From the NCBI GenBank assembly GCA_964629365.1, contig CAZVRB010000004.1, positions 18,827-82,826 on the forward strand: a DNA stretch of 64,000 nt, written 5' to 3'. This document shows positions 1-55,874 of this stretch, one piece after another. The notes under the pieces were generated by a model that worked only from the letters and a program-made list of their open reading frames with translations, did not search any database and was not told where the DNA came from. Each line of letters opens with the position of its first letter. The stretch's first letter is position 1. The translations under genes were made by a program, and so were the position numbers. Origin of the DNA: an uncultured Leptospiraceae bacterium. Lineage in GTDB: Bacteria; Spirochaetota; UBA4802; UB4802.

Positions 1-810
1 CTGCTAGCCGGATGTGACATAGGGTCCCTCACTGCAAAGGCGGTGCTCTTAGACCTTGATACGGGTAAAATTCTATCGCAGGGGATACTGCCTGTCAGGC
101 CCACTGCAGCTGAATCATCATACGCTATCATGAATATAGTACTCAACCGGGTTGGCCTGTCTCACGATGATATTGATTACCTCTGCAGCACCGGGTATGG
201 CAGGCTGGAAATTCCATTCGCGGACATGCACATCAGTGAAATATCCTGTCATGGAAGAGGGGCACACTGGCTTGACACGTCAATCCGTACAGTGGTAGAT
301 ATTGGCGGCCAGGACTGCAAGGTCATCTCAATTGATAACGCGGGGTTTATCAATGACTTCATTATGAATGATAAATGCGCTGCCGGTACAGGACGATCAC
401 TCGAGATGCTTGCAGCCACAATTGGGGTTCCACTTGATGATTTGGGCAGGCTTTCACTCAAATCCCGGAAACCAGTACCCATATCAAACAAGTGCAGCAT
501 TTTCATGGAGCTTGAAGTTCTTGATGCCATGTACCGCAAAAAAAAATTGAAACACATAGCCCACGGGCTTACCGACGCCGTCGCAAAACGTGTTGCATCA
601 CTGGCAAAGGCCGTCCCGGTGCGCGAAAGTATATGTATTACCGGGGGTGTAGCAAAAAACATGGGTGTTGTCCGTCAACTTGAGAAATACATGGATATAC
701 ATTTCAAAAAACTTCCAGTAGATTCACAGCTTATCGGCGCTATTGGTGCAGCCCTCTTCGCGGGTGATACATACACAAAAAAAGGGGTCCCATCGGAGGC
801 AAAATGCTGA
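1..810 (+). CDS. BadF/BadG/BcrA/BcrD-type ATPase (HgdC-like CoA-substrate-specific enzyme activase), 5' end truncated by window edge
   Basis: N-term LAGCDIGSLTAKAVLLD matches the GIDxGST actin-fold start and continues in-frame to base 1. DIGGQDCKVI, NDKCAAGTGRSLE (cluster-Cys motif) and NKCSIFMELEV motifs present. Only a few codons are missing upstream. Confidence 0.8.
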   Translation: MLAGCDIGSLTAKAVLLDLDTGKILSQGILPVRPTAAESSYAIMNIVLNRVGLSHDDIDYLCSTGYGRLEIPFADMHISEISCHGRGAHWLDTSIRTVVDIGGQDCKVISIDNAGFINDFIMNDKCAAGTGRSLEMLAATIGVPLDDLGRLSLKSRKPVPISNKCSIFMELEVLDAMYRKKKLKHIAHGLTDAVAKRVASLAKAVPVRESICITGGVAKNMGVVRQLEKYMDIHFKKLPVDSQLIGAIGAALFAGDTYTKKGVPSEAKC

Positions 811-1649
811 CGGCGGGTATCGATGTGGGAACTCGTTTCATAAAGGTGGCAATCACTGATGGGAACATTATGATGGGTTCAAGCTGTATAGAACTGGCTG
901 CCGATTTCAGGGGAATACTTAAGGCCTGTTTTCAAGAGGCACTTGCAGATGCCGCCAATTTCAGTTCTACCCGGGTACGGAAAAGACATGTAAAGAAAAT
1001 AATAGCCACGGGATACGGTGCACACCTTGTAAAACAGGCGGCATATACCATACAGGAATCATTCTGCCTTGCACGTGCCGCTCGTTTCCTGTCACGGGAT
1101 ACCAACACGGTGATAGACAGCGGTGGACTATTTATAAAGGTGGTTACTGTCAATGAACATGGCTTCCCCGAAGAAAGCCATGTCAATGAAAAATGTGCAG
1201 CCGGCAGTGGCAGGTTCCTGGAGATGATTTCCGCGGCATTGAATATTTCGATTAATGAAGTATCACATACAGCATCCAAATCAACAAATCCATATAATAT
1301 CGTGAACAGCTGTGCCGTGTTCGCCGAAAGCGATGTCATCAGCCAGGTAAACGCGGGAACATGTGGTGAAGATATCATCGCCGGTGTTCTCAATGTAATA
1401 ACATTAAAAACCATAACACTCCTGGAAGGTGTGGATTCCGGTGATACAATTGTCATGGCAGGGGGACTTGCAAAGATACCTGCATACATACACGCTCTTG
1501 AACGTTATTCAAAGAAAGATATTTCTCTCATATCTATTGACCCGCAAATGCCTGCAGCATTTGGCGCAGCCCTTATTGCACAGGGAAGGACAATGGTATC
1601 ACACGAAAGAAAAAATGGGACGGGTAGAAAACAAATCCATGATAAGTGA
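804..1649 (+). CDS. second BadF/BcrAD-type activase ATPase (HgdC/BcrA-like)
   Basis: MLTAGIDVGTRFIKV N-term, NEKCAAGSGRFLE and SCAVFAESD motifs, about 280 aa. Overlaps the upstream activase by 7 nt, so the tandem pair resembles BcrA/BcrD. Confidence 0.8.
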   Translation: MLTAGIDVGTRFIKVAITDGNIMMGSSCIELAADFRGILKACFQEALADAANFSSTRVRKRHVKKIIATGYGAHLVKQAAYTIQESFCLARAARFLSRDTNTVIDSGGLFIKVVTVNEHGFPEESHVNEKCAAGSGRFLEMISAALNISINEVSHTASKSTNPYNIVNSCAVFAESDVISQVNAGTCGEDIIAGVLNVITLKTITLLEGVDSGDTIVMAGGLAKIPAYIHALERYSKKDISLISIDPQMPAAFGAALIAQGRTMVSHERKNGTGRKQIHDK

Positions 1650-2436
1650 AAAAGTGAATAATAAAAAGACACAGGATCATGCACCTCTTATTGAGGTCAT
1701 ACACAAAATAACCGGAAACACCACAAGAAGATTCATGGAGTATCCACTTGATGATGGCATTGAAGCTGACAGGTTTAATCTGCGGTCACCCCATGGAGTG
1801 AAAAAACCCGTAATCGTCACCGCAGAAGACACCGCCCTGGAAATTGGATCACCCCATCACCGGGCAGTAAACACGCTGCTGTGGACACACCGGAAAGGAG
1901 TTATCCGCAACCGTGTACTAATCGGAGGCATTGAGATGGAAGAAGCAATGCCGGGACCAGTTACGGCCGCTGTTTGCAGTATGACCGAGATAGAAGAATC
2001 TCTCGACACAAGCGGTCCAAACTTCCAGGCCCTGCGCCATCTTTCCAATATGCTGCCGGGATACATGATTCGCAGTATGCCAGGCAAGATGTGGGTACGT
2101 CTCCACCATAATCTGGTAAAATCAGGTTTTTCATCATATTCACTTGCCCAGTGTCTTGCCCATGCGTATCGTCAATTACATCCAGCCATCAGCGCAGTAG
2201 AGGTAATGGTAGTGATGGGTATACCGGATATCGTAGAGGAAATGGAGTCCGTAGATCTCAGGGCCAGGATCATTAACGGTACAAATCGCAACATTTCACT
2301 CGAAGAAGACGGGTCCCTGGTCTGTGAAGACCTGGATTGTACACACTGCGAGAATATGGCCTCCTGTGATATCATCAGGGAAATAATAAAAAAGAAAAGA
2401 GGAAATAATGGGAAAAACCATCGCCTTCACGGGTAA
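1613..2436 (+). CDS. hypothetical protein with C-terminal Cys cluster (CEDLDCTHCENMASCD); family not recognised
   Basis: Long ORF in a third frame. The likely start is ATG 1613 (MGRVENK) or ATG 1637 (MISEKV), just overlapping the activase stop. No motif I recognise, and it overlaps the CooC-like gene start by about 29 nt. Confidence 0.45.
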
Positions 2437-3181
2437 GGGAGGGGTGGGCAAAACCGCTCTATCCGCCATATGCGGGAAAATACTCATTGAGAAAGGGGAA
2501 CGGGTTCTTTTTATTGATGCTGATCCTGCGATGGGGCTTGCTACCGCCCTGAATGTGAAAGAGTATACAACCATAGGACAGGCACGAGAAGAGATTATCC
2601 GGCAGGTACGAACCACATCCCCGGAGGATGACAAGGCCCCCCTGGCTGATATCATTGATTATCTTCTTCTTGCATCACTGCACGAGGCTGAAGGATACAG
2701 CCTCATAGTAATGGGGCAGACTGATACACTTGGATGTTTTTGCTCATTGAATTCCCTTCTAAAGGATACTATCACTTCAATAAGTGAAGAATACGACTGG
2801 ATTATTATTGATGCCGAAGCAGGATTTGAGCAGGTAAATCGACAGGTTATGAACACCGTACAATTCCCGGTCATCGTCAGCGATAATACAATGCGTGGTG
2901 TTAAAACCGCATCAATGATCATGGAGGTCATAGATCGCATCCCATCAATGAATCCCCTGCGTACCGGTCTCATTTTTAACAGGGTAGAAAAGGCAGAACC
3001 GCAACTTGTACGCAACATCAAATCAGCCGGAATCAATTATTACGGGCATGTGCCTGCTGATAGTGATATATCAAGAATTGACCTGGATGGCACCTCAATT
3101 CTTGATATATCCCGCGATTCTATATCCATGCAAAACATGAAACGTATTCTCTCCGAAAGTAAAATTCTTCAAAAAACTTGA
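2408..3181 (+). CDS. CooC/MinD-family P-loop ATPase (CooC-type metallochaperone-like)
   Basis: Deviant Walker A TGKGGVGKT, and a GCFCS (C-x-C) motif where CooC has its metal-binding CxC. About 257 aa. AGAGGA RBS upstream. Confidence 0.7.
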   Translation: MGKTIAFTGKGGVGKTALSAICGKILIEKGERVLFIDADPAMGLATALNVKEYTTIGQAREEIIRQVRTTSPEDDKAPLADIIDYLLLASLHEAEGYSLIVMGQTDTLGCFCSLNSLLKDTITSISEEYDWIIIDAEAGFEQVNRQVMNTVQFPVIVSDNTMRGVKTASMIMEVIDRIPSMNPLRTGLIFNRVEKAEPQLVRNIKSAGINYYGHVPADSDISRIDLDGTSILDISRDSISMQNMKRILSESKILQKT

Positions 3182-3286
3182 GATTACACTCCCTGAAGTT
3201 TTGTTTCAGCCACTTCACGCCGTACACGACATCACCCTGTTAACCCTGTAGAATGCACTCACATATTATGCGTGAGGAGTAATCAG

Positions 3287-4681
3287 ATGAGAGACGTATA
3301 TATAATTGGAGCTCACACGGTGAAGTTCGGAAAGCACCTCGACAGGTCAATATCCGACCTGTGCAGGATGACAGTTTTCCCCTGCCTCGAAGATGCCAGC
3401 CTTAAAAAAGATGATATACAGGCTATCTGGTTCGCTAATTCTGCATGGGGAGAATACCGGCGACAGGTTTGCATAAGAAGCCAGGTTGCTTTACGACCTC
3501 TTGGTATTGACACGATACCAATGACAAACGTGGAGAATGCATGTGCGGGTGGATCAACTGCCCTCCATCACGCCTGGCTTGGTGTAGCCAGCGGCCTGTA
3601 CGATATCACCATGGCACTTGGCGCAGAAAAAATATACGACCCCAACCGGCACCTGGTATTCTCCGGTTTCCTGACCGGAATGGATGTAGCCAACTTCAAG
3701 GAATCGGTTGCGTTGCTGCCCTCATTATCAATGTCCGATGACGATAAAGAAGCAATGTTCCAACATATCGAAAAGTATGCAAAGAACACAAAGGGAAAGT
3801 CCAAAAAAAGACAAACCGTAAAACAGAAAATCAGGGACACCCGTGATTCCCTGGTAATTGCCATACGAATCGGGGAAAGCATGGGATATGATGCGCTAAA
3901 AATTATTAAGAAACTGATGACCGGTGATCATTCCCCCTTCATGGACGTGTATGGCCATGAAGCCAGGAAGCATATGAAAAAATACGGCAGTTCAATTGAA
4001 GACCTTGCCGTAATTGCATCAAAAAACCATATGCACAGCACCATGAACCCCAATGCCCAATACCAGTTCCCTATCTCTAAAGAAGATGTTCTGGCAGACC
4101 GTCTTGTATCCTGGCCATTGACACGTTCAATGTGTGCTCCCGTCGGTGATGGTGCCGCCTCGTCAATACTCTGTGACGAAAAAACTGTAAGAAAACTTGG
4201 CCTCATGTCCCAGGCAGTAAAAATCAGGGCATCCATACTTGGCTCAGGAAAAGCAAGAGAAGAAAACGAGATGGACCTTGGCCAGCGTCTGGCAAATCGT
4301 GCCTATGAACAGGCGGAGCTTTCACCATCAGACATGGATATAGCCGAGGTTCACGATGCAACAGCTTTTGGAGAACTTCACCAGACAGAAAACCTGGGAT
4401 TCTGCAATGCCGGAGAGGGCGGCACCCTGGCCCAGAGCGGTGCCACACGTATCGGAGGAAAAATTCCCGTTAACACCAGTGGAGGACTTGAATCCCGCGG
4501 GCATCCCATCGGGGCATCCGGGCTTGGACAGGTTCATGAAATCGTCACCCAGCTGCGGGGTAACGCAGGAAAACGGCAGGTAGCATCCCCAAGAATAGGA
4601 ATAGCAGAAAACGGCGGCGGGGCTCTTGGTGTAGAAGAAGCGGCCATGTGCATACACATACTGGAAACACCACAAAAGTAA
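3287..4681 (+). CDS. thiolase-fold protein, SCP-x / nonspecific lipid-transfer-type acetyl-CoA C-acyltransferase with ~80 aa insertion
   Basis: VYIIGAHTVKFGK, NVENACAGGSTAL (active-site Cys) and C-terminal NTSGGLESRGHPIGASG / IAENGGGALG motifs. GAGGAG RBS 7 nt before ATG 3287 (the track ORF starts earlier at 3272). A lysine-rich segment around residues 150-230 is absent from canonical thiolases. Confidence 0.75.
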   Translation: MRDVYIIGAHTVKFGKHLDRSISDLCRMTVFPCLEDASLKKDDIQAIWFANSAWGEYRRQVCIRSQVALRPLGIDTIPMTNVENACAGGSTALHHAWLGVASGLYDITMALGAEKIYDPNRHLVFSGFLTGMDVANFKESVALLPSLSMSDDDKEAMFQHIEKYAKNTKGKSKKRQTVKQKIRDTRDSLVIAIRIGESMGYDALKIIKKLMTGDHSPFMDVYGHEARKHMKKYGSSIEDLAVIASKNHMHSTMNPNAQYQFPISKEDVLADRLVSWPLTRSMCAPVGDGAASSILCDEKTVRKLGLMSQAVKIRASILGSGKAREENEMDLGQRLANRAYEQAELSPSDMDIAEVHDATAFGELHQTENLGFCNAGEGGTLAQSGATRIGGKIPVNTSGGLESRGHPIGASGLGQVHEIVTQLRGNAGKRQVASPRIGIAENGGGALGVEEAAMCIHILETPQK

Positions 4682-6468
4682 TGAAGGAACAGGTGAACGA
4701 TATGATGAGTCAAAACTTGAAAATATTTATCGGAAAGATGAGAATGCTGAAAAATGTAACCAGGTCATTGTTCATCTTCATGGGAGAAGATATCAAACGG
4801 GGTACTCTTTCAAAGAACCTCAAGGGCATCGGCAAGATGGAGCTTGCCGAAGAGATGTCCTGGGCAGAACTTGTGGAAGAAAAAGCCGCAAAATATGGCA
4901 GCAGGACATACCTTACATATGAGGACAGAAACTTCTCATACAGTGATATGAATGACAATGCAAATCGTATCGCAAATTTTCTTAAGAAAGCCGGTGGTCA
5001 ACAGGGTGTGGGGGTTGCCATCTTTATGGACAACAGTCCACGTTTTCTTGATGTTTTCTTTGGCCTGCAGAAGATCGGAATGTATGCCGTCCCGGTAAAT
5101 ACATCATTAAAAGGTGAGGGCATGAAGTATATTCTCAATCATTGTGATGCCCGGTTTCTCGTGATAGACCAGCAGCACCTTCACACACTCCAAAAGATCG
5201 AAGCCAACCTTGATACCATTCATACCATTATCGTGAACCCCTCAGAGAATTCTCCCATCATAGCTGAAAGAAATTATCTTTCCCTTGATGACGCCTACAC
5301 TGAGAATCCCCATAATCCGGGTACAGGCTATAACAGGGACGACATCTGTTTTATTACCTACACCTCCGGCACTACCGGGCTTCCCAAGGGTGTGGTCTAT
5401 CGCTATCGCAACAGCGGGGTGAAGTTTTTCTCTCTTATCGCCCATATATTGTGGAGAAAACGAGATGTCATGTATACCTGCATGCCCCTTTTCCATGCCA
5501 ATGCTCTTGTTGTTACCTGTACCAGCGCACTGCACGCGGGAGCCCGTGTTGTGCTTGAGAAAAAGTTTTCGGCAAGTCGATTCTGGCACTCTATTCGTAC
5601 ACATGGCGTTACTACTTTCAATACCATCGGTGCCATGATCCCTATCCTCATGAAACAGCCCGAGAATGAACTTGATGGAAAAAACAAAGTTCGTTTTATC
5701 ATATCTGCCGCATGCCCCCCTGAACTATGGGAACAATTCGAAAAACGCTTCAATACAACAATATACGAAACATATGGAGCAGTTGACAGCGGCGGCAAAA
5801 CCATCTTAAACCTGGGCACCGCACCGGTGGGATCAATTGGCAAACCACCCATGAAGGTAACATATCGCCTGGTTGACGAACACATGAATGATGTACCTGA
5901 AGGAGAACCGGGAGAATTAATATTCCCCGCGCCAAAAGAAAAGACTGCCAGTTCGGGTGTTGAGTTTTATAAAAATGAAGAAGCAACCTCTGCCAAGCAA
6001 AGCGATGGGTGGATCAGGACCGGGGATCTTCTGAAACGGGATAAGAAAGGATACCTTTATTTTGTAGGACGTAATACCGAGTCCATGCGGATCAAGGGGG
6101 AAAATGTCTCTGCCTACGAAGTTGAACAGGTAATACAAAATCATCCTTCTGTACTGGAAGTTGCCGTATATGCGGTCCCCTCAGACCTGGCTGAAGATGA
6201 GATCATGGCAAGGGTTAAAATTGTGGACGGGAAAAGAATAACAGAAAAAGAACTATGGGAATTCATCATTGAGAACCTGGCAAAATTTGCCGTCCCCAGG
6301 TATATTAAATTTGTTTCTGACTTTGATAAAACAGAGACCCATCGCATAAAGAAGAAACAGCTGGAGCAGGACGGAATTGTAGAAGGTACATACGACGCAC
6401 AGAAAAACACCTATATAACGACAGGAAATAACAAACCGAAAGAAGCTGCAACCGGACACAGTGTATGA
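4681..6468 (+). CDS. AMP-dependent acyl-CoA synthetase/ligase
   Basis: YTSGTTGLPKGV AMP-binding motif, a TGD motif and the two-domain ANL layout. ATG 4681 overlaps the thiolase stop (TAATG), which suggests translational coupling. The track ORF start at 4648 is probably too early. Confidence 0.8.
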   Translation: MKEQVNDMMSQNLKIFIGKMRMLKNVTRSLFIFMGEDIKRGTLSKNLKGIGKMELAEEMSWAELVEEKAAKYGSRTYLTYEDRNFSYSDMNDNANRIANFLKKAGGQQGVGVAIFMDNSPRFLDVFFGLQKIGMYAVPVNTSLKGEGMKYILNHCDARFLVIDQQHLHTLQKIEANLDTIHTIIVNPSENSPIIAERNYLSLDDAYTENPHNPGTGYNRDDICFITYTSGTTGLPKGVVYRYRNSGVKFFSLIAHILWRKRDVMYTCMPLFHANALVVTCTSALHAGARVVLEKKFSASRFWHSIRTHGVTTFNTIGAMIPILMKQPENELDGKNKVRFIISAACPPELWEQFEKRFNTTIYETYGAVDSGGKTILNLGTAPVGSIGKPPMKVTYRLVDEHMNDVPEGEPGELIFPAPKEKTASSGVEFYKNEEATSAKQSDGWIRTGDLLKRDKKGYLYFVGRNTESMRIKGENVSAYEVEQVIQNHPSVLEVAVYAVPSDLAEDEIMARVKIVDGKRITEKELWEFIIENLAKFAVPRYIKFVSDFDKTETHRIKKKQLEQDGIVEGTYDAQKNTYITTGNNKPKEAATGHSV

Positions 6469-6480
6469 GTTGAACGATCA

Positions 6481-6516
6481 GGGGAGAGAACCACAATTCA
6501 ACTCTCCCCTTCTTTT
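6481..6516. terminator. bidirectional rho-independent terminator hairpin between convergent genes
   Basis: GGGGAGAG-13 nt loop-CTCTCCCC followed by TTCTTTTCC on the + strand. Confidence 0.4.
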
Positions 6517-8147
6517 CCCTGCATCATTACACGATATTCACTTGGTGTCTTACCTGTCTGTTTTTTAAATTGCCGGTGGAAATGCGTCAGGTTGTCGAAA
6601 CCCACATGATACGCGATATCTATAATCTTTGCATCTGTTTCCATCAACAAATCTTTTGCCCCTTCAATACGCTTGTTGTTTATATAATTCGATATGTTTA
6701 TTCCCGTTGTTTTTTTAAATACCTGCCCCATGTAATCTTCATTGAGACCAAATTTTTTCGACAGATCCTTACGGTCATATCGCTCCTGGTAATTCACATC
6801 AAGGTATTCAATGACATCATGTATCATATCCCTTGGATCAGGTTTCACCGACTCACCCTTAATTGAATTGAGTATTCGCTCCATTTTCTTTGTTTTTTTC
6901 AAAAGGGCACCGTACAGCGAATCCTTCTCTCTTTTCATTCGTTCAAAATCATAGATATAATACAAAGCGAATATGGTGAATACCAGCGGCACATGGAAAA
7001 ATATCAGCATCGGGAGTTCATCGAATCGAAATGTGGCCATGTAATACGTATTTCTAAGAACCGAGACCGGAACCGGGATAGCCACAAAAAGGAAGTACCA
7101 GTATCGTCGTGGGTCCCGTCGTATACATATAAAAAAAAGTACAGCAGCGGTTATAATACAGAGATTAACAAAAATGACCGTTCCCAGGCCTGCACCCTTG
7201 ATAAGAAAGGACGTATCAGGTGCTAAAACTATTGCCAGCACCAGAGGCATACCCAGTATAAATGACATCCATACTATATACTTATTTTTTATATCAAAAA
7301 ATTCCATGACCGCATGCAACGCGATAAAATTAACCAGGGTGAGGCTCATCAGGAACATCTTGTATCGCAAAAGGCCTGAAATAGCACAATTGAAATCCAG
7401 CATGGTCACATTACCGGCGAGGGTGAATAAAACGAGAAGGAAGAAATAGAGGTATTCTCTCCGGCCGGTACGGGATACCGCCAGTACCCCGAGTCCCAGC
7501 AGGAAAAGAAAATTGAGTGCCACAGAAGAAATATTGATCAGTATTGGAGTTTTGTTTTCTATTCTATGCGCAAAATACCCGCCGGGATATTCTGTAATTC
7601 CCATATATCCATTGATGCCGCTGATCACATGTGAAAAGACCCGAATAGCGATAGTATTATATTCACCATACCGAACAAGCGTATCGGGTAGTAGATAAGA
7701 ACGGCCCTGTTGCCATGAGAAATGGTACCTGTCATCTTCTTTATCCGGTATGGTTCCATTTGCACCCACCTGTATACCATTGAGGAACGTCTCATCTGCC
7801 ACACCAATTCGTCCCAGGAGAAGACATAATGATTTTCCCCTGTACTCTTCACCTATAAAAATTTTTTTCCGCAGCCATATAGTGGCCTCAAGGTTTTGCT
7901 GATCAATAATCAGGCGGGTAAAACTTCCAGGTAATTCCAGTTCAGGATAATCTCTATCATCCAGGGAAGGAAGGGCAAGTTCAGGATTATCGAAGGTTGA
8001 ATACTTCCATGTTCCACTGCAATCAATATCAGTGTCAGGGGTTCCTGCGGTAGTACATGCAGTACACAACAAGACAACACAGGCGATGCATATATATTTG
8101 ATAGTAGTCATAATCACATGAACATGAGTTTTGCAATATTTCCCCAA
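6498..8147 (-). CDS. 7TMR-DISM (DISMED2 extracytoplasmic domain + 7TM) fused to AraC-family HTH regulator
   Basis: Signal peptide and lipobox-like CTAC, an about 180 aa periplasmic beta-rich domain, then 7 hydrophobic helices. C-terminal HTH_AraC: DIAYHVGFDNLTHFHRQFKKQTGKTPSEYR. Confidence 0.7.
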   Translation of the reverse strand: MGKYCKTHVHVIMTTIKYICIACVVLLCTACTTAGTPDTDIDCSGTWKYSTFDNPELALPSLDDRDYPELELPGSFTRLIIDQQNLEATIWLRKKIFIGEEYRGKSLCLLLGRIGVADETFLNGIQVGANGTIPDKEDDRYHFSWQQGRSYLLPDTLVRYGEYNTIAIRVFSHVISGINGYMGITEYPGGYFAHRIENKTPILINISSVALNFLFLLGLGVLAVSRTGRREYLYFFLLVLFTLAGNVTMLDFNCAISGLLRYKMFLMSLTLVNFIALHAVMEFFDIKNKYIVWMSFILGMPLVLAIVLAPDTSFLIKGAGLGTVIFVNLCIITAAVLFFICIRRDPRRYWYFLFVAIPVPVSVLRNTYYMATFRFDELPMLIFFHVPLVFTIFALYYIYDFERMKREKDSLYGALLKKTKKMERILNSIKGESVKPDPRDMIHDVIEYLDVNYQERYDRKDLSKKFGLNEDYMGQVFKKTTGINISNYINNKRIEGAKDLLMETDAKIIDIAYHVGFDNLTHFHRQFKKQTGKTPSEYRVMMQGKEGES

Positions 8148-8337
8148 TCACTGCATGAAAACATAAAAAAATCAACGAATTTATTATACTCTCCTTGTAA
8201 TTGACAACACGATACGCAAAAATAAATACACTACATCAAGAATGCAGCAACTTCCTTAATATACTGCAAGAAATAGAACTTACTATATTGTAGTATTCAT
8301 CATACTTTCAAAGGGAAGAGACTACAGAACGTTTTAA

Positions 8338-8784
8338 TTGCAGAGGCACTTAATTATGAATGATAATGTATTTCTTCGTCTATACAAAGTTATATTTATC
8401 CTGGCTGCACTCTGGAATATTTGTGTCGGTGCTACAGGACTCCTGTTCCAGAATTATTCCATTCAATTGTTTTATGGAAGCAGTGCGTTGCATGAGACGT
8501 TTATCGCAATGCTGAATTATCGCATCGTTATGCTGGCAATAATTATTTTCGGGCTTGGATATTTTATCGTATCCAGGGCACCCCTCTTGAACAGGGGAAT
8601 AATATGGCTTGGGCTTTTAAGCAAGCTCATCCTGTTTTGCATATTTACGTTTCATTTTTTCACCGGAAATACCACCATATTCGCATTTCTTCTCGTCTGC
8701 GGAGACATGGCATGGTCACTTATATTCTTATATTTTCTATTCAAAAGTTCGCATCACGTAAAATATAATTTTTTAACAGGATAG
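8338..8784 (+). CDS. small integral membrane protein, hypothetical
   Basis: 148 aa, 4 predicted TM helices, AT-rich promoter region upstream. Confidence 0.4.
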   Translation: MQRHLIMNDNVFLRLYKVIFILAALWNICVGATGLLFQNYSIQLFYGSSALHETFIAMLNYRIVMLAIIIFGLGYFIVSRAPLLNRGIIWLGLLSKLILFCIFTFHFFTGNTTIFAFLLVCGDMAWSLIFLYFLFKSSHHVKYNFLTG

Positions 8785-8792
8785 AATACGGC

Positions 8793-9548
8793 ATGAAAAA
8801 AAAACCAGATACTACACTGTCCCCCCTGTATACCTATCATGAAGGGATGCAATGGAACCCCGTCGAAAAGGTGATATTTGAGCGAAGGAGCATTCGTGTC
8901 TTCAGGAAAAAAGATGTACCGGATTCCCTTATCAAAAGAATTTTAGAAGCAGGTCGGTTTGCCCCTTCAGCGGGCAACTGCCAGCCCTGGAAATTCGTGG
9001 TAATAAAAGATCCACAGGTTATAGAGCAAATGGAACGGGACACAATACGAATTACCCGACTCCTGATGTGGTTCATTGACTACGAACGGGGACCCGTAAG
9101 GCGTATTCTTCTGGGCACTCCGGTAAGGCTTTTGGCCAGGCTTGTGCCCAACATGCTGCACCCCATACCATTCAACCTGCTTCAGCGCATCGCCGCTGGT
9201 TCAGTACCCGTGTATCATAATGCCCCGGTTATAATCCTTCTTTTGGTAGACAAGCGAGGGGTTGGAACACCATCACTGGACGCGGGAATTTGCGGACAAA
9301 ACATGGTACTGGCTGCACACAGCCTGGGTCTGGGCACATGCTGGATCGGAATGATCACCTTGCTGATGAAAATGAAGAAGTGGCGTAAACGTTTTGGGGT
9401 TACATACCCATTTACCCTTGACGACTGTCTCATACTGGGCTGGCCACGGGGGGATTATGATGGTGAAATAGATCGCGAAATACAACTCGTTGAATGGATC
9501 AAAGAAGGTTCATCGTGGGACAAAACTACAGAACGACAGGGGGAATAA
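8793..9548 (+). CDS. nitroreductase family protein
   Basis: RRSIRVF...AGRFAPSAGNCQPWKFVVI signature of the NADH oxidase/nitroreductase fold. Confidence 0.75.
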   Translation: MKKKPDTTLSPLYTYHEGMQWNPVEKVIFERRSIRVFRKKDVPDSLIKRILEAGRFAPSAGNCQPWKFVVIKDPQVIEQMERDTIRITRLLMWFIDYERGPVRRILLGTPVRLLARLVPNMLHPIPFNLLQRIAAGSVPVYHNAPVIILLLVDKRGVGTPSLDAGICGQNMVLAAHSLGLGTCWIGMITLLMKMKKWRKRFGVTYPFTLDDCLILGWPRGDYDGEIDREIQLVEWIKEGSSWDKTTERQGE

Positions 9549-9549
9549 C

Positions 9550-9906
9550 ATGGCAAACCTTTCCATTCTGGATAAAGCAAAAATACCCAACTATTTCAAG
9601 TCAAAGCATATACGAACCGGCCTGGTCGTCTTTGATCCGTCACTGTGCACAGGATGTGGAATCTGCGTTTCCATCTGCCCTGCCGGTGCCATAACGATGA
9701 ACAGCCATATCCCGGGGGAGCGAACGAAAATCCCTGAGCTTGTACAGCTCTTTCATGATAAAGACATTCTCGCCTGCATGGCCTGCGGTGATTGCACGGC
9801 AGCATGTCCCAGTGATGCTATACAAATTAAGAGAGGATACAATACGAAGTATTATTTCAAAAAGATATCCCAGGTGCCCGACTTTGCTTTCCCCAAAAAA
9901 TACTGA
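9550..9906 (+). CDS. 4Fe-4S dicluster ferredoxin-domain protein
   Basis: Two CxxCxxCxxxCP motifs (CTGCGICVSICP, CMACGDCTAACP). The start MANLS at 9550 abuts the nitroreductase stop. Confidence 0.7.
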   Translation: MANLSILDKAKIPNYFKSKHIRTGLVVFDPSLCTGCGICVSICPAGAITMNSHIPGERTKIPELVQLFHDKDILACMACGDCTAACPSDAIQIKRGYNTKYYFKKISQVPDFAFPKKY

Positions 9907-10829: not shown

Positions 10830-12389
10830 TTATTTCATTCCGAAAAATGAACTGATGCTATTTATAATCTCATCTCCGTAATCTCCCAGCAATTCACCTG
10901 TACTTTTTCTGTGCTTAAGCTGCAGTCTTGATTCAGTTTCCAGCTTGCGGCTTGCCATTACTTTTGCAAGCTCTTCAATAACCTCCGGCCTTTTTTCCAG
11001 TATAGGGGCAAGGTCTTCCCTGGAAAATTCCATGGCCTGGCAATCGGTAAGGGCAACAATTGTGGCCGATCTGCGCTCACCTGTTAAAAGTGAGTTTTCC
11101 CCGAAACAATCCCCGGTTGCCAGGCGCTCCAGTTCAACCGGCTTGCCATATGAATCAAGACGGGATATGGAGATTACACCGGCAGTTAATACCATCAGGG
11201 AATCACCTTTGTCCCCTTCCCTGACAATGGTTTCGTTTTCCCTGTAACTATTCAGGGTTACCCTTTCCAACAGTTCTTTGCGCTCTTCTTCGGTAAGAGG
11301 CGAAAAAATTTCAACGCTGGATATAAGTTCGTCAAGACCGGGTTCAATTATTTCATTGCGCTCTCCACTAAAGACATTCACTTCATGAGCGGATGGTGGC
11401 GGACTTATTCCTGCCTTCTGGCAATAATTCCATATCTCCATGAAAAGGTCATCACGGGCGGCAAAATACGTGGGATAATCTTCAAAATATACAAAAACAG
11501 AGTAGAGATAAGGCCTGCTCGTCCCATCCGAGAGGCGAACTACAGGGGGAGGATCCTTCAAAACTTTTTTACAGCTGAGAGCTGCTTCCAGTAAAACCCG
11601 ACGTACGAGTTCAGGAGAGATATCAGGTGAAATTTCCATCTTGAACCATGTACAGTAAACCCTGTCAGGCAGGTTGTAATTATGGATTGTGGAGGACATG
11701 GCTTTTCCGTTGGGTACTACGTACACGCTCTTGTTCCATGACAAAAGTCTTGTTGAGCGCCAGTTGATATCCACAACCTTCCCAATAGTACCATCACCCA
11801 TCTCAATCCAGTCATTGATACGGTAGGGTTTCTCTATGCTGAGAGCTATACCCGCGAATATATCTCCCAGGGTAGTTTGCATCGAAAGACCTATAACCCC
11901 GGCAATAATCCCTGATGAAACAAGAAGACCGGTTACAGGGCGGTCAAACACAAAGGTCATAATGCCATAAATGGCAAGGAGGTATACCCCTATCCTCACA
12001 AGGTTTTGCAGTATGTTGGGAACATCCATACCGGTTCGCCGTTTTACCATCCCTTTCCATACAAATAAATCTACAGCCTGAACAATTATACGGGCAAAAA
12101 TCAACCATAGTAAAACGGTTCGACCACGAGTTATCATGTTCGCGATTCTATCATCAAGAATAGGACCAAGCCAGTTGAATACCAGTGCTTCAAGTGACAA
12201 TACAAATAGGGGCAAAAGCACTATCTGTATCAACCAGAAAAAACGGATTATCAACAGCACCTGCAAACGATCAGCTGCTTTTTTCAATATCACGTATATA
12301 ACAAAAATCACGAGGACCGGATACGCCATCTCAACTGGCAGGCTTGATGTACTGCCCTTGAGGTATTCCAATATCATATGCACATTCAT
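10830..12389 (-). CDS. MscS-family mechanosensitive channel with C-terminal cyclic-nucleotide-binding domain
   Basis: TM region plus MscS pore/beta domain (GDIFAGIALSIEKPYRINDWIE...VVPNG). C-terminal cNMP-binding domain (GDKGDSLMVLTAGVISI...GDCFGENSLLTGERRSATI). Confidence 0.8.
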   Translation of the reverse strand: MNVHMILEYLKGSTSSLPVEMAYPVLVIFVIYVILKKAADRLQVLLIIRFFWLIQIVLLPLFVLSLEALVFNWLGPILDDRIANMITRGRTVLLWLIFARIIVQAVDLFVWKGMVKRRTGMDVPNILQNLVRIGVYLLAIYGIMTFVFDRPVTGLLVSSGIIAGVIGLSMQTTLGDIFAGIALSIEKPYRINDWIEMGDGTIGKVVDINWRSTRLLSWNKSVYVVPNGKAMSSTIHNYNLPDRVYCTWFKMEISPDISPELVRRVLLEAALSCKKVLKDPPPVVRLSDGTSRPYLYSVFVYFEDYPTYFAARDDLFMEIWNYCQKAGISPPPSAHEVNVFSGERNEIIEPGLDELISSVEIFSPLTEEERKELLERVTLNSYRENETIVREGDKGDSLMVLTAGVISISRLDSYGKPVELERLATGDCFGENSLLTGERRSATIVALTDCQAMEFSREDLAPILEKRPEVIEELAKVMASRKLETESRLQLKHRKSTGELLGDYGDEIINSISSFFGMK

Positions 12390-25259: not shown

Positions 25260-25958
25260 TTATTTCTGTAAAAAGGAGTCCGGATCAAGAGTTTTTTCTC
25301 CTTTCCGGATTTCAAAATGCAGATGGGGACCGGTTGCCCGCCCGGTGGCACCAACTGTACCAATTACTTCCCCACGTGTAACCTTATTACCTTTTTTCGC
25401 GTATCGTTTATCCAGATGCCCATAATAGCTGACCAGGTTATCAGCATGTTGAATAACTACCAGGTTTCCATAACCATTATTATAGTAGGCAGATTTCCGC
25501 ACTACACCTGATGCAGTTGCCTTTACCGGCGTTCCCCGTGGTGCCGCGATATCAATACCCTTATGAAATGAAGATTTTTTTTTGGTTATGGGATCTACCC
25601 GGTAACCATAATCGCTGGTACGTGTTCCACTTGCAGGTGAAATAAAATTTTTAGACTCCAGCTTATCCACATCATCCACCTTTTCTGGTGATACGGGTGA
25701 AATCATCTTACCTGGTATCGATTCACCTAGGCCGTCATTTATTTCTTTCATAAATGCGTCAAGTTCTTTCAGTATTTTCTGTTTTCTCTCAAGATCTGAA
25801 GAATGCTGCTTGTCCACACGATCCCTGTCCGCTGTTTTCTGATCAGTATACCTGTTATCCCCATTAGCCGCGTATGCAGTCAGCAGGAAGATTAGACTTA
25901 CGGTCCACAATTTTTTCATTCTCCACTCCACCTGGCCCTTAATTAAATCATTACCCAA
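25260..25958 (-). CDS. M23 family peptidase (secreted)
   Basis: Signal peptide. HKGIDIAAPRGTPV...GHLD...GATGRATGPHLHFEIR motifs. Abuts the ICMT gene and overlaps the kinase gene by 8 nt. Confidence 0.8.
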   Translation of the reverse strand: MGNDLIKGQVEWRMKKLWTVSLIFLLTAYAANGDNRYTDQKTADRDRVDKQHSSDLERKQKILKELDAFMKEINDGLGESIPGKMISPVSPEKVDDVDKLESKNFISPASGTRTSDYGYRVDPITKKKSSFHKGIDIAAPRGTPVKATASGVVRKSAYYNNGYGNLVVIQHADNLVSYYGHLDKRYAKKGNKVTRGEVIGTVGATGRATGPHLHFEIRKGEKTLDPDSFLQK

Positions 25959-28900
25959 GAACCCTGTTCAGCACCTTGGTAATATCACTCAGCCTGAAAG
26001 GTTTGGTTATCACATCTTTAAAACCATACGCACGGTGATTTGCCATAATCGGGTCATTAGAATACCCGCTGGAAACGATGGCATTTATATCCGGATCAAT
26101 TTTCAAAAGTTCCCCTACTGCCTCTTTGCCCCCCATCCCTCCGGGAATGGTGAGATCCATTATCACTGCCCCGAAAGGATTATTTTCCTGCCGTGCTTTC
26201 TTATATTCATCGATGGCTTCTTCGCCAGTCTTAACACATTTTACTTCATATCCCAGGTACTCGAGCATATGGCTTGATACGTCACATATATATTCCTCGT
26301 CATCCATGATCAGAACTCTTCCGCTTTGCTGCGTGTTTACCTGGTATACATCGTCACTCTTTTTAACATCCTGCGAGGATGCCCTCAGATATATTCTGAA
26401 TGTTGTACCTCCATCCTCCTGTGATTCAACCTTTATGTGGCCACCATGTCTTTTAATTATTGAATAACTGCTGGCAAGTCCCAGTCCTGTTCCGTAATCT
26501 TTTGTAGTAAAATAAGGATCAAAAATTTTATTCAGTATCTTCTTTGGAATACCCGGACCTTCATCTTCAATTGAGAATGTGACGTATTTACCTTCAGGCA
26601 AAGGAACATCGAGTTTACCCTCATAATTCCTGGCCACAATGTAGATCGTACCACCCTCAGGCATGGCCTGCATCGCGTTAATTATTATATTATTCAACAC
26701 CTGGCTAATCTGTCCTGTATCAATATCAACAGACCATAAACCGTCTTGTATGTCAAATTCGCAATTGACACCCGATCCGGCAAGAATGAAGCTTACTGTT
26801 TCCCTGATCAGGTCAACAATTGAAGTTATTTCCTTGATTGGCTCTCCTCCTTTCGCGAAGGCCAGCAACTGGCGTGTCAGGTCTACCGCCCGCTGGGCCG
26901 CCTGTTCAATTTTTTGGAGAATGGGGAATGGCTCTGAATCATCCGTCATCTTTATCTTGGCAAGGGAAAGATTACCCAGGATGGCTGTTAAGAGGTTATT
27001 AAAATCATGGGCAATCCCCCCCGCAAGCACGGATAACGACTCAAGTTTGCTCATTTTCAAGATTTCCTGCTCAAACTGATGCTTGTCCGTAACATCACGA
27101 ATTGCCAGCACAACACCGCTCATCTCCTCTTTCTCCATCCTGATAGGGGCACCGTTAAGCTCAACGATCCGTTGATTGCCTGACATGGTAACAAGGGTCA
27201 GCGGTATTCCAATCATGTCAAGTTCTCCATACGCCATCACCTGTGTTACAGGATCCGGGTAATCTTCACTTGTGTTCAGATAACGCAGAAACAGCACTTC
27301 ACTCATTTTTTTACCTTCTGCGTCTTTTTGCGAAATACCGATCAATTCTTCTGCCACCCTGTTGATCAATAGAATTGTTCCCCGTATATCAGTGGTTATA
27401 ACTGCATCACCTATAGATCGTAACATTGCACCAAGCTGTTCTTTTTCTCTTTCCGCTGTTTCGTTTGCTTCAATCAGTTCATTATGGGTACTTAACAATT
27501 CTTCATTAATAGCCTCAAGTTCTTCATACTGGGACTGGATCTCTGAATACTGCTGTTGTATTGTGGAATGGGCCTTCGTCAACTGGCTGATGTCTGTGAT
27601 AATTGCCAGTGTACCCATACGTTCCCCAAGTGTAATTGGAACGGCTGAGATGTGCACCTGTTTTACATCTCCTTCAGATGTACACATCTGGGCCTCGTAA
27701 TGAGTGGGAACATCCTTTTCCCCTTTCATACGGGACCTGTAATTTTCTAATACTATTTTACCACGCTCCGTATCAGGTACCAGGTCGCTAAGCGATTTCG
27801 CATAAAAATCATCCTCTGAATAATTCAGCATGGACAGCATGGCAGAATTTACAAATGCAGGTTTTTCATCAATAACCACGATAATTCCGTCATGCGCGTT
27901 TTCTACCAGTGACCTGTATTTGGATTCAGATTCTTTCAAAGCTGCGATTGCAAATTCTCTCTCTCTTCTAATAGTATTGATCTTGTCAGCGATTCCAAGT
28001 GAAAACAGGAGCACCATTATTGACGACCCGATCTGGTAACCCCATTCAGTGAGAAATATGTCAGGAAGCACAGCATACACCCTCAGTGACAACAAGAGTG
28101 CCCCCAGTATAAAACTTACCGACGCGATCATATAAAAAACAGCAGGGCGGTGTTTCTTGAACAGCTGATGAAAACCGATAACCAGTAAAAGAACAGCTGC
28201 TGCCATGGCATGCAACACGGATGCCTGTGTACCATAATAATACCCGATTACCAGCACGGCTCCCATTCCAATTATGCCTATGTATAACAACAGCTTCAAC
28301 AGCCTGTCCAGAAAGGGCTGCAAAGTGGATGTATTTAAAAATGACCTTGTAAACAATGTAATACTTACCATAACCAGGAATACCGAGAAAGGGTGGGCCT
28401 TGTTTGCCCACCAGGTATTTCCCGGCCAGAGATACTTAAAGGCCAGGCCGTTGTTCACCATTGAAAAAATAAAAATACCGATTATAAAGAACACAAGATA
28501 AAGATAACTACGTTCACGTATGGAAAAGAAAATGAACAGGTTATAAAATAACAAGGCCGCCATAATGCCATAATACAACCAGAGAATGGGCAACTCCCTG
28601 AATTTACTTCGGAACAGTGCATCCCGGGACCATGCGGTTAGTGGTACCACCAGGGATCCCTGTGAACGTACGCGAAGATAGTATGTCCTTTTTCCGGCAG
28701 GCTCAACGAGAGGAAATACATAATTTCTGTACAGGGGCTCCGGCCTTGAATAAAAATCAAAGGTATCACCGGTGCGAATCGTTCTATAACCGGTTTTTTC
28801 GGGTATGAACAGGGTTATATCATCAATAATTGGGTATCCAAACTCCAGGTGCCATTTAAGCGGTTTTCCAGTAACATTATCTACCGTAAAACGAATCCAG

Positions 28901-29187
28901 AGAGCTTCCTCAGAGTAGCCGAATGAAGGATGTGCTGCAGCAATATGGGCAAATTGATACTGGTCACCACCAGAAGATATTTCATTTATTTTTACAGAGG
29001 AATCAACACCTTCCACATATTCAATATACTGATCCAATTCAATTTTTGAAAGATCAGCATCCAGAATAACCGTGTGTTCATTTCCAGCATGAAGATATTG
29101 ATACGATGAAAGTATCAGTATTGTGGTGATCAATGATATTTTATATAAATATTTCAATGCCATTATGTAATTACTCATCACCATCAA
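25951..29187 (-). CDS. 7TMR-DISM hybrid sensor histidine kinase/response regulator with PAS domains
   Basis: N-terminal DISMED2 plus 7TM, PAS, HisKA (HDFNNLLTAILG), HATPase_c (GTGLGL) and a C-terminal REC (LIMDDEEYI...DLTIPGGMGG). Confidence 0.85.
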   Translation of the reverse strand: MMVMSNYIMALKYLYKISLITTILILSSYQYLHAGNEHTVILDADLSKIELDQYIEYVEGVDSSVKINEISSGGDQYQFAHIAAAHPSFGYSEEALWIRFTVDNVTGKPLKWHLEFGYPIIDDITLFIPEKTGYRTIRTGDTFDFYSRPEPLYRNYVFPLVEPAGKRTYYLRVRSQGSLVVPLTAWSRDALFRSKFRELPILWLYYGIMAALLFYNLFIFFSIRERSYLYLVFFIIGIFIFSMVNNGLAFKYLWPGNTWWANKAHPFSVFLVMVSITLFTRSFLNTSTLQPFLDRLLKLLLYIGIIGMGAVLVIGYYYGTQASVLHAMAAAVLLLVIGFHQLFKKHRPAVFYMIASVSFILGALLLSLRVYAVLPDIFLTEWGYQIGSSIMVLLFSLGIADKINTIRREREFAIAALKESESKYRSLVENAHDGIIVVIDEKPAFVNSAMLSMLNYSEDDFYAKSLSDLVPDTERGKIVLENYRSRMKGEKDVPTHYEAQMCTSEGDVKQVHISAVPITLGERMGTLAIITDISQLTKAHSTIQQQYSEIQSQYEELEAINEELLSTHNELIEANETAEREKEQLGAMLRSIGDAVITTDIRGTILLINRVAEELIGISQKDAEGKKMSEVLFLRYLNTSEDYPDPVTQVMAYGELDMIGIPLTLVTMSGNQRIVELNGAPIRMEKEEMSGVVLAIRDVTDKHQFEQEILKMSKLESLSVLAGGIAHDFNNLLTAILGNLSLAKIKMTDDSEPFPILQKIEQAAQRAVDLTRQLLAFAKGGEPIKEITSIVDLIRETVSFILAGSGVNCEFDIQDGLWSVDIDTGQISQVLNNIIINAMQAMPEGGTIYIVARNYEGKLDVPLPEGKYVTFSIEDEGPGIPKKILNKIFDPYFTTKDYGTGLGLASSYSIIKRHGGHIKVESQEDGGTTFRIYLRASSQDVKKSDDVYQVNTQQSGRVLIMDDEEYICDVSSHMLEYLGYEVKCVKTGEEAIDEYKKARQENNPFGAVIMDLTIPGGMGGKEAVGELLKIDPDINAIVSSGYSNDPIMANHRAYGFKDVITKPFRLSDITKVLNRVLG

Positions 29188-54674: not shown

Positions 54675-55874
54675 ATGGTAAGTGCAATCATGAAAATAAT
54701 TATTCGCCTCATGTACAATTTTATCGTCTTTTTTATCATGTGTTCGCTACTATCTTCCCCTCTTCATGCCGGCAACATATCAGTAGATATGATATCTTTT
54801 GACAATTATTCAGGCTACCTGCTTCTTCTGCTGTTAATGTTTCTACTGTGTATAAATATTGTTATTTGCCTGATATGGTATTCACTTTTTCAGAAAAAGA
54901 TGCACCTGTACATGGCATTGCTTAGCGGGGTATGGATTATCCATACATTGTTACTGTGTCCCCAGTGTAATCCTTTTTCTACAGAAACCATGAAAACCTG
55001 TATACTGGTCTGCATGACAATTACGCCACCTCTCATCTACGTCATTCTACAGCATGTATACAGGATTTTTCTTCGGGGATTAAACAAGATAATGTGCACC
55101 TTCTACCTTTCACTTTTTTCAATCATGCTGATATTACAAATAACCGGATTAATATATACACTACGGCTTGTCAGCTGTCTCAGTATAATGATTTCCGCAA
55201 TCCTGGTGGCCGGATATTGTATATATGCCCTGCACCTTATCAAACCTGACAAAAAAATATTCATCATAATAATATATATCCTGATCCCATTTCTTTTTAT
55301 AACCAGGGACATGATCTATTATCTTTTCTTAACCCGTGATTTCACAGTAACGGTATTCTTTATGTTTCTGCCATTAATGCTGGGATTACATTTTTTAGCA
55401 TGGCATTCTATTTTTGAGAAAAAAGTAATTAAAAAGGTTCTGTACGTTAGAGACATCACTATTTACCCAAATGGTACCGGCAGGGTGGCATCTCAGCATT
55501 GTCATCTCATGGAAACCGTAATCGAGTATATACGGAACAATTATTCATGTCCGCTTACCCGTGAAGACCTTGCCGACATTGTAGAGATCAGCCCGGATTA
55601 TCTCGGCCGCATGTTTCAGAAATATACCGGGAAGAAGCTCAAAGAATATATCAATGAATATCGTATCACTGAATCTGCCAGGCTGATTAGCGAAACCAGC
55701 CACAGTTTTATTCACATCGCCTATGAAGTGGGCTTTGAATGTGTTGCAACTTTTAACAGGTATTTTCAGAAAGTATATGGAATGGCACCCAGGCTTTATC
55801 GACATAAAATGTCGTCAATGGTTAGTTCCGCAATGACAGCAGTGGAGCAGGGATCCTGCCACCCCGGCGTATAA
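54675..55874 (+). CDS. membrane-embedded (7-8 TM) AraC-family HTH regulator
   Basis: N-terminal polytopic membrane domain, then a C-terminal HTH_AraC (IAYEVGFECVATFNRYFQKVYGMAPRLYR). Confidence 0.7.
   Translation: MVSAIMKIIIRLMYNFIVFFIMCSLLSSPLHAGNISVDMISFDNYSGYLLLLLLMFLLCINIVICLIWYSLFQKKMHLYMALLSGVWIIHTLLLCPQCNPFSTETMKTCILVCMTITPPLIYVILQHVYRIFLRGLNKIMCTFYLSLFSIMLILQITGLIYTLRLVSCLSIMISAILVAGYCIYALHLIKPDKKIFIIIIYILIPFLFITRDMIYYLFLTRDFTVTVFFMFLPLMLGLHFLAWHSIFEKKVIKKVLYVRDITIYPNGTGRVASQHCHLMETVIEYIRNNYSCPLTREDLADIVEISPDYLGRMFQKYTGKKLKEYINEYRITESARLISETSHSFIHIAYEVGFECVATFNRYFQKVYGMAPRLYRHKMSSMVSSAMTAVEQGSCHPGV

Follow-up and report, generated by a model that had tools for sequence, protein, structure and literature searches.

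The stretch of DNA analyzed here, referred to below as the window, comprises 64,000 nucleotides of contig CAZVRB010000004.1 from an uncultured Leptospiraceae bacterium and carries on its minus strand a gene for a one-component regulator in which a predicted seven-helix transmembrane (TM) receptor and an AraC-type helix-turn-helix (HTH) domain form one polypeptide. An earlier note on this DNA had described the protein as a 7TMR-DISM receptor fused directly to an AraC HTH. The maximal open reading frame (ORF), 6498..8147, runs through 549 codons without interruption from a TTG at 8147. Homologs in the family alignment begin at the internal Met13 of this ORF; the corresponding ATG at 8111 is present in both of the closest orthologous loci (L007 and L008), and the closest ortholog has TTA in place of the TTG. 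For these reasons translation probably begins at the ATG at 8111, which would give a gene of 6498..8111 and a 537-residue protein. Residues are numbered below as in the 549-codon ORF.

The joining of receptor and HTH is not an artefact. When the N-terminal 431 residues served as a database query, 36 relatives of about 540 residues came back, and because all 36 bear the AraC domain and align end to end, the fusion is genuine and conserved; the possibility, raised in the earlier note, that a frameshift had run a separate HTH gene into the receptor is excluded, and the description of a one-component membrane protein with an AraC output holds. The DNA-binding domain (DBD; 6513..6842, minus strand, residues ~436 to 545) contains the two HTH motifs of the AraC/XylS family. 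Residues 462 to 539 match PF12833 (2.9e-22) and PF00165 (1.9e-15), with no other significant Pfam match anywhere in the regulator, and NCBIfam recognizes only the AraC DBD, always under equivalog cut-offs. In sequence the domain is 33 to 36% identical to the YesN-type DBD structures 3lsg and 3oou. The soluble N-terminal effector-binding and dimerization domain of AraC/XylS regulators is absent, the 435 N-terminal residues being taken up by a predicted signal peptide, a jelly-roll domain, the helix bundle, and a linker. This linker (6843..6932, minus strand, residues ~406 to 435) would continue TM7 into the cytoplasm as a helix; it carries the motif LYxALLKK, and E407, L415, L416, and K418 are at least 90% conserved in the family alignment.

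At the opposite end of the protein, a predicted signal peptide with a lipobox (8055..8111, minus strand, residues 13 to 31) consists of a hydrophobic stretch at 11 to 29 and a near-invariant Cys31, present in at least 90% of 33 sequences and directly preceded by L-x-[AGS]. These lipobox-like neighbors of Cys31 suggest a signal peptide of the lipoprotein type and lipidation at that residue. The hydrophobic stretch is followed by about 175 hydrophilic residues and then by seven hydrophobic segments within residues 206 to 398. Basic residues cluster behind TM7 and in three loops (SRTGRRE, FDIKNKY, and RRDPRRY), a pattern from which the N-terminal domain is predicted to be external and the HTH cytoplasmic; the predicted topology is an exported N-terminal domain, seven TM helices, and a cytoplasmic C-terminal signaling module, in this order. 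A confident AlphaFold2 model built on a 33-sequence alignment (mean pLDDT, 85.2) resolved the same three modules: a beta-sandwich at 45 to 186, seven helices, and a helical DBD. In the model TM7 and the linker form one unbroken helix, 385 to 431, and a short low-confidence hinge at 430 to 435 separates the linker from the DBD.

The extracytoplasmic domain (7572..8036, minus strand, residues ~38 to 192, about 155 residues) had been proposed in the earlier note to be DISMED2, and this part of the proposal failed by the refuting condition that the note itself had named. PF07696, the DISMED2 model, found no match in the regulator even at E<=1 and none in 40 relatives with the full module; the family ecto-domain hidden Markov model (HMM) matched none of 41 DISMED2 proteins; and HHalign of the ecto-domain against a DISMED2 alignment, made from relatives of the window's own 7TMR-DISM kinase, gave a probability of 1.4% (P 0.037). 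The nearest folds and sequences are instead GH2-N modules. A PDB sequence search led to GH2 "sugar-binding domain" proteins (6ed1, 7e-5) and to the module that corresponds to theirs in carbohydrate esterases and sialate O-acetylesterases. Where the family profile is matched through the ecto-domain only (E<1e-34), Pfam calls the matching proteins Glyco_hydro_2_N, BetaGal_ABD2, or Glyco_hydro_2_N2, and some of these are joined to glucoamylase-type catalytic domains. On the strength of these matches and of the absence of DISMED2 signatures, DISMED2 was rejected and we assign the domain, by its jelly-roll fold and sequence kinship, to the GH2-N/BetaGal-type galactose-binding-like modules (PF02837, PF13364, PF22666); carbohydrate binding itself is putative. 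In GH2 enzymes such a domain does not always act as an autonomous lectin. A second type of ecto-domain, DISMED1, with carbohydrate-binding affinities was reportedly distinguished in the 2003 paper in which the 7TMR-DISM family was defined, and the GH2-like ecto-domain may be equivalent to it. Among the profile hits (P0078-P0145), many secreted proteins of about 350 residues carry two ecto-domains of this GH2-N type in tandem and no other domain.

The seven-helix bundle (6933..7571, minus strand, residues ~193 to 405) belongs to the 7TMR-DISM superfamily as a divergent branch, a verdict that rests on profile iteration and HHalign rather than on a direct Pfam match. A profile of sensor plus bundle, searched against 1.84 billion representatives, returned 5,789 relatives, most of the top matches through the ecto-domain alone. 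Forty long matches span both the ecto-domain and the 7TM block, and 23 of these contain PF07695, the 7TMR-DISM bundle model, exactly where the family 7TM block aligns. Their outputs are those usual for 7TMR-DISM modules, of which the earlier note had named kinase, GGDEF, and cyclase: SpoIIE/PP2C in 8, methyl-accepting chemotaxis proteins (MCPs) in 8, HisKA_3/HATPase in 7 to 8, GGDEF in 4, and cyclase in 2. After one iteration, a 7TM-only HMM matched PF07695-positive proteins end to end (HMM positions 8 to 219), with E=1e-7 for P0136 and 2.6e-4 to 8e-4 for P0168, P0128, and P0177 in a library of 1.8e9. HHalign of the full module against the canonical DISMED2-plus-7TM alignment was co-linear (probability, 87.7%; E, 3.4e-6); with the 7TM part only (probability, 58%; P, 1e-4), R-EYLYF fell on DRSYLYY and RRDPRRYWYF on the canonical basic loop. 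This second motif contains the predicted cytoplasmic-loop signature DPRRYWYF between TM5 and TM6 (7092..7115, minus strand, residues 345 to 352), in which P346 is invariant and D345, Y349, W350, and Y351 are at least 90% conserved in the family; a basic loop, G-R-P-A-R-F, stands opposite it in the alignment to the canonical 7TMR-DISM family. Unrelated multi-TM proteins scored negative. One relative, P0170, has the same three-part layout, an AraC output, and PF07695 at 41 bits (gathering cut-off, 29). The homology of the seven-helix block to recognized PF07695 members thus lies at the profile level.

The same domain searches can be read otherwise, namely, that the seven helices are an independent polytopic anchor, unrelated to 7TMR-DISM, whose likeness to it comes from a mobile GH2-N-type ecto-domain and from hydrophobic composition. 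PF07695 has no match in the regulator even at E<=1, and hence none at the gathering score; a 7TM HMM built from this family only does not reach PF07695-positive proteins at strict E-values in the library of 1.8e9, the scores of those proteins coming mostly from the ecto-domain; and split-domain HHalign is weak, with probabilities of 34 to 58% for the bundle and 1.4% for the ecto-domain against DISMED2. These three results weigh against a 7TMR-DISM assignment. A canonical 7TM HMM seeded with the window's kinase likewise matched no AraC-type member, which also speaks for an independent anchor, and BLASTP of the regulator against that kinase found nothing. The end-to-end matches of the iterated 7TM-only HMM, the motifs in register with the canonical family, the negative scores of unrelated TM proteins, and P0170, with its above-threshold PF07695 beside the same ecto-domain and an AraC output, nevertheless make an independent anchor unlikely.

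Two further membrane proteins in the window bear on how this receptor should be classed. The gene at 25951-29187 (minus strand) encodes a canonical 7TMR-DISM hybrid kinase, as the earlier note had recognized (PF07695, 8e-46; PF07696, 2e-34). The AraC protein at 54675-55874 (plus strand) is membrane-embedded, as noted earlier, with about seven TM segments and no ecto-domain; it resembles the regulator in the HTH only, at 35% identity. Its TM block is an orphan with four near-identical relatives among 5.8 billion clusters and no known family, and comparison with both 7TM alignments by single-sequence HMM, HHalign, and homolog search revealed no link to 7TMR-DISM. HMM scans of all ORFs in the window found one protein per module type. 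Because of this, and because the second AraC protein is unrelated beyond its HTH, the proposal that the receptor class is expanded here is not supported: of the three proteins in question, one is a canonical member, one a divergent member, and the third a multi-TM AraC protein unrelated to the class. These observations also bear on a conventional reading of the regulator as an ordinary 7TMR-DISM protein, with DISMED2 and a PF07695 bundle, fused to AraC within a regionally expanded set of receptors. The regulator does share the layout of the window's kinase (signal sequence, ecto-domain of about 170 residues, 7TM), and the bundles are homologous at the profile level, but the absence of PF07696 from the protein and from all 40 relatives, the HHalign result for DISMED2, the GH2-N nature of the nearest modules, and the single match per module HMM make this reading quite unlikely.

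The kinase gene is followed downstream, with an 8-nt overlap, by a gene for an M23 (LytM) peptidase (25260-25958, minus strand; PF01551, 1.4e-36). In the Rhizobiales, the 7TMR-DISMED2 protein RgsP and the M23 peptidase RgsM are a functional pair (PMC6107284), and by analogy the kinase may have a role related to the cell wall.

The family to which the regulator belongs appears narrowly distributed. We searched 185,579 species-representative genomes with an alignment (A1) that includes the HTH, and half of the returned loci were HTH-only matches to YesN-type response regulators of Bacillaceae. Full-length relatives occurred at 29 loci, exclusively in metagenome-assembled genomes (MAGs) of uncultured Spirochaetota, Leptospirales, and Leptospiraceae, the closest being 95% ("Spirochaetes bacterium M55B154") and 90% ("uncultured Leptospiraceae") identical; several MAGs carry two or three paralogs. 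Among the top 149 cluster representatives found with the profile, 30 combine the ecto-domain, the bundle, and AraC, 31 combine the ecto-domain and the bundle with other outputs, and 86 match the ecto-domain HMM only, a count to be read with the reservation that at least the long proteins P0163 and P0185 carry a PF07695 bundle missed by the local 7TM HMMs. Further PF07695 kinases are encoded close to the AraC gene in the genomes of relatives (L001 17454-17632).

On its 3' side the regulator gene faces a cluster of genes for acyl-coenzyme A (acyl-CoA) enzymes, annotated with Pfam and NCBIfam, that occupies 43..6468 on the plus strand. It comprises two BcrAD/BadFG-type activase ATPases (43-810, cut by the window edge, and 804-1649), an uncharacterized 335-residue protein (1429-2436), a ParA/CooC-like ATPase (2408-3181), an SCP-x-type thiolase (3272-4681), and an AMP-forming acyl-CoA ligase (4648-6468). 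The ligase gene ends at 6468 and the regulator gene, read from the other strand, ends at 6498, in agreement with the convergent orientation reported earlier. On its 5' side lies a divergent operon (8338..9906, plus strand) of three genes. The first (8338-8784) encodes a 148-residue multi-TM protein that neither Pfam nor NCBIfam recognizes; by Pfam, the second (8793-9548) encodes a member of the nitroreductase family and the third (~9550-9906) a 2x[4Fe-4S] ferredoxin. The ferredoxin ORF as listed, 9490-9906 (plus strand), overlaps the nitroreductase gene by 59 nt and has its Fer4 domain from residue 46 onward; an internal Met (MANLSILDK, ~9550) is the more likely start. The small TM protein, 57% identical between the window and locus L001, always precedes the nitroreductase and ferredoxin, and it may serve the activases as a membrane partner in electron transfer. 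Beyond this operon, 10830-12389 (minus strand) encodes an MscS-type mechanosensitive channel with a fused C-terminal cyclic-nucleotide-binding domain.

The same set of genes, shuffled in order and orientation, accompanies the regulator at six loci of relatives only 32 to 51% identical to it, together with two HGD-D genes resembling those of double-cubane reductases, HadBC, and BzdNO, a GMC oxidoreductase, and often a START-domain protein; the window probably starts just after HGD-D genes that would lie off its edge. In the cluster shared by many uncultured Leptospirales MAGs (loci L002-L006), a CdhC-like protein stands beside the ParA/CooC-like ATPase. A tblastn tally of 6 to 8 kb on each side of the regulator at 35 loci found the ligase at 20, the thiolase at 17, the trio of small TM protein, nitroreductase, and ferredoxin at 11 to 12, and the activases at 7. 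The link to the CoA cluster, which the earlier note had suggested, is therefore borne out as an association, and the neighborhood is kept down to about 32% identity despite rearrangements. Because this linkage persists through rearrangement, the likely regulon comprises the ligase and SCP-x thiolase pair, the ATP-driven dehydratase/reductase of the BcrAD/HGD-D type with the GMC oxidoreductase, and the divergent operon for the small membrane protein, nitroreductase, and ferredoxin.

The divergent intergenic region (8112..8337) is a candidate promoter and operator region for the regulator gene as well as for the operon on the other strand. Close orthologs retain it and are too similar for footprinting, and promoter-like sites are not commoner in it than in shuffled sequences.

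Taken together, these observations support a model, to which we assign a probability of roughly 0.7, in which the protein is a membrane-integral one-component transcription factor composed of a GH2-N-type sensor, a divergent 7TMR-DISM bundle, and an AraC output, and in which it regulates its conserved neighbors. The remaining points that count against this model concern regulation. A search for repeats in 8100-8345 found only short two-copy matches and no operator motif. K-mers shared among five divergent intergenic regions were not above those in shuffles, in a test whose power was low because there were only five sequences. The ligase and thiolase, the best-conserved neighbors, are convergent with the regulator and so have no promoter region in common with it. 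Finally, a sugar-type sensor has no obvious fit to an acyl-CoA regulon.

Under the model, a lipoprotein-type signal peptide would export the GH2-N-type galactose-binding-like domain to the periplasm, where it would sit on the seven-helix bundle, and TM7 would run on as a conserved cytoplasmic helix into the AraC-type DBD. An extracytoplasmic ligand, for which a glycan or glycoside is a guess, could bind the jelly-roll domain, shift the bundle and linker, and thereby alter how the tethered AraC domains, which are probably dimeric, bind operators or recruit RNA polymerase at the membrane at nearby target promoters, presumably those of the likely regulon. The regulator probably switches on, rather than represses, the neighboring cluster of anaerobic acyl-CoA enzymes.

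A different mechanism would hold the AraC factor sequestered at the membrane and release it by regulated proteolysis, or would have the bundle sense the state of the membrane or its lipids, with the ecto-domain serving localization or envelope binding. The lipid- or acyl-CoA-like character of the regulon would suit this mechanism, given the 'lipid-transfer' type of the SCP-x thiolase and the START-domain and acyltransferase genes nearby in relatives, and the low-confidence segment at 430 to 435 could be a cleavage site. We consider it very unlikely, since the loci of relatives show no conserved neighbor encoding a site-1 or site-2 protease, the family alignment shows many invariant surface-type residues in the ecto-domain, and the same module of ecto-domain and bundle drives kinases, cyclases, and MCPs, where proteolytic release makes no sense.

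Ligand-gated control by the sensor, as in the preferred model, can be carried further, to the more doubtful idea that a receptor resembling a G-protein-coupled receptor in its seven helices is itself a ligand-gated transcription factor whose GH2-type module senses an external glycosylated or otherwise complex substrate and, dispensing with second messenger and phosphorelay, turns on an ATP-driven radical acyl-CoA dehydratase/reductase pathway, in a family restricted to uncultured Leptospirales. If true, no 7TMR-DISM receptor before it would have combined a defined DNA output with an assignable regulon. Receptors of this superfamily are widespread, but for few of them is a signal known or an output traceable. 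A DNA-binding output beside a conserved candidate regulon would be a very direct read-out of signal transmission through seven helices, because a reporter gene would show the signal. The findings further show that the PF07695 and PF07696 models under-detect a large branch with GH2-N-type ecto-domains and divergent bundles, and they tie an anaerobic acyl-CoA dehydratase/reductase-like cluster of uncultured Leptospirales to a dedicated extracytoplasmic sensor.

Neither a 7TMR-DISM receptor with an AraC or other DNA-binding output nor the enzyme cluster turned up in the searchable literature; 7TM-AraC proteins are present in sequence databases, labeled only as AraC-family or HTH proteins. Among known systems, the nearest are the 7TMR-DISM receptors (PF07695), which include Pseudomonas RetS and LadS and Sinorhizobium RgsP (PMC6107284). 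Like them, the regulator starts with a signal sequence, continues with a beta-sandwich ecto-domain and a seven-helix bundle, and ends in a cytoplasmic output; its bundle is homologous to theirs at the profile level, and sister proteins with the same ecto-domain have the classic diversity of outputs. The regulator differs in that its output is a DNA-binding domain rather than an enzyme or a phosphorelay, its ecto-domain is of the GH2-N type rather than DISMED2, and its bundle is too divergent for the Pfam model. With the AraC/XylS regulators (AraC, AdpA, MarA, and the YesN type) it shares the C-terminal two-HTH domain of about 100 residues, but where these have a soluble cupin-type ligand-binding and dimerization domain or a receiver, it has an exported sensor and seven TM helices.

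The resemblance to other membrane-bound regulators is one of function. ToxR, CadC, SusR, and BguR (bioRxiv 10.64898/2026.01.10.698779) also join a periplasmic sensor and a cytoplasmic DBD in a single polypeptide, dispense with a phosphorelay, and act on adjacent catabolic genes. They have a single TM helix, DBDs of the OmpR or GerE type, and other sensor folds, and there is no homology to the regulator beyond the general concept. ToxR/CadC-like proteins have an OmpR-type winged-helix DBD at the N terminus and a periplasmic sensor at the C terminus, with a single TM helix between them; the regulator has the opposite domain order, seven TM helices, and an AraC DBD. The AraC-output hybrid two-component systems of Bacteroides likewise combine a periplasmic carbohydrate-type sensor and an AraC HTH in one membrane protein, but they signal via HisKA, HATPase, and REC domains, none of which is present in the regulator. 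Membrane one-component regulators and 7TMR-DISM receptors are thus both known, and the 7TM-AraC protein is best regarded as an undescribed variant that joins the two rather than as a new kind of system.

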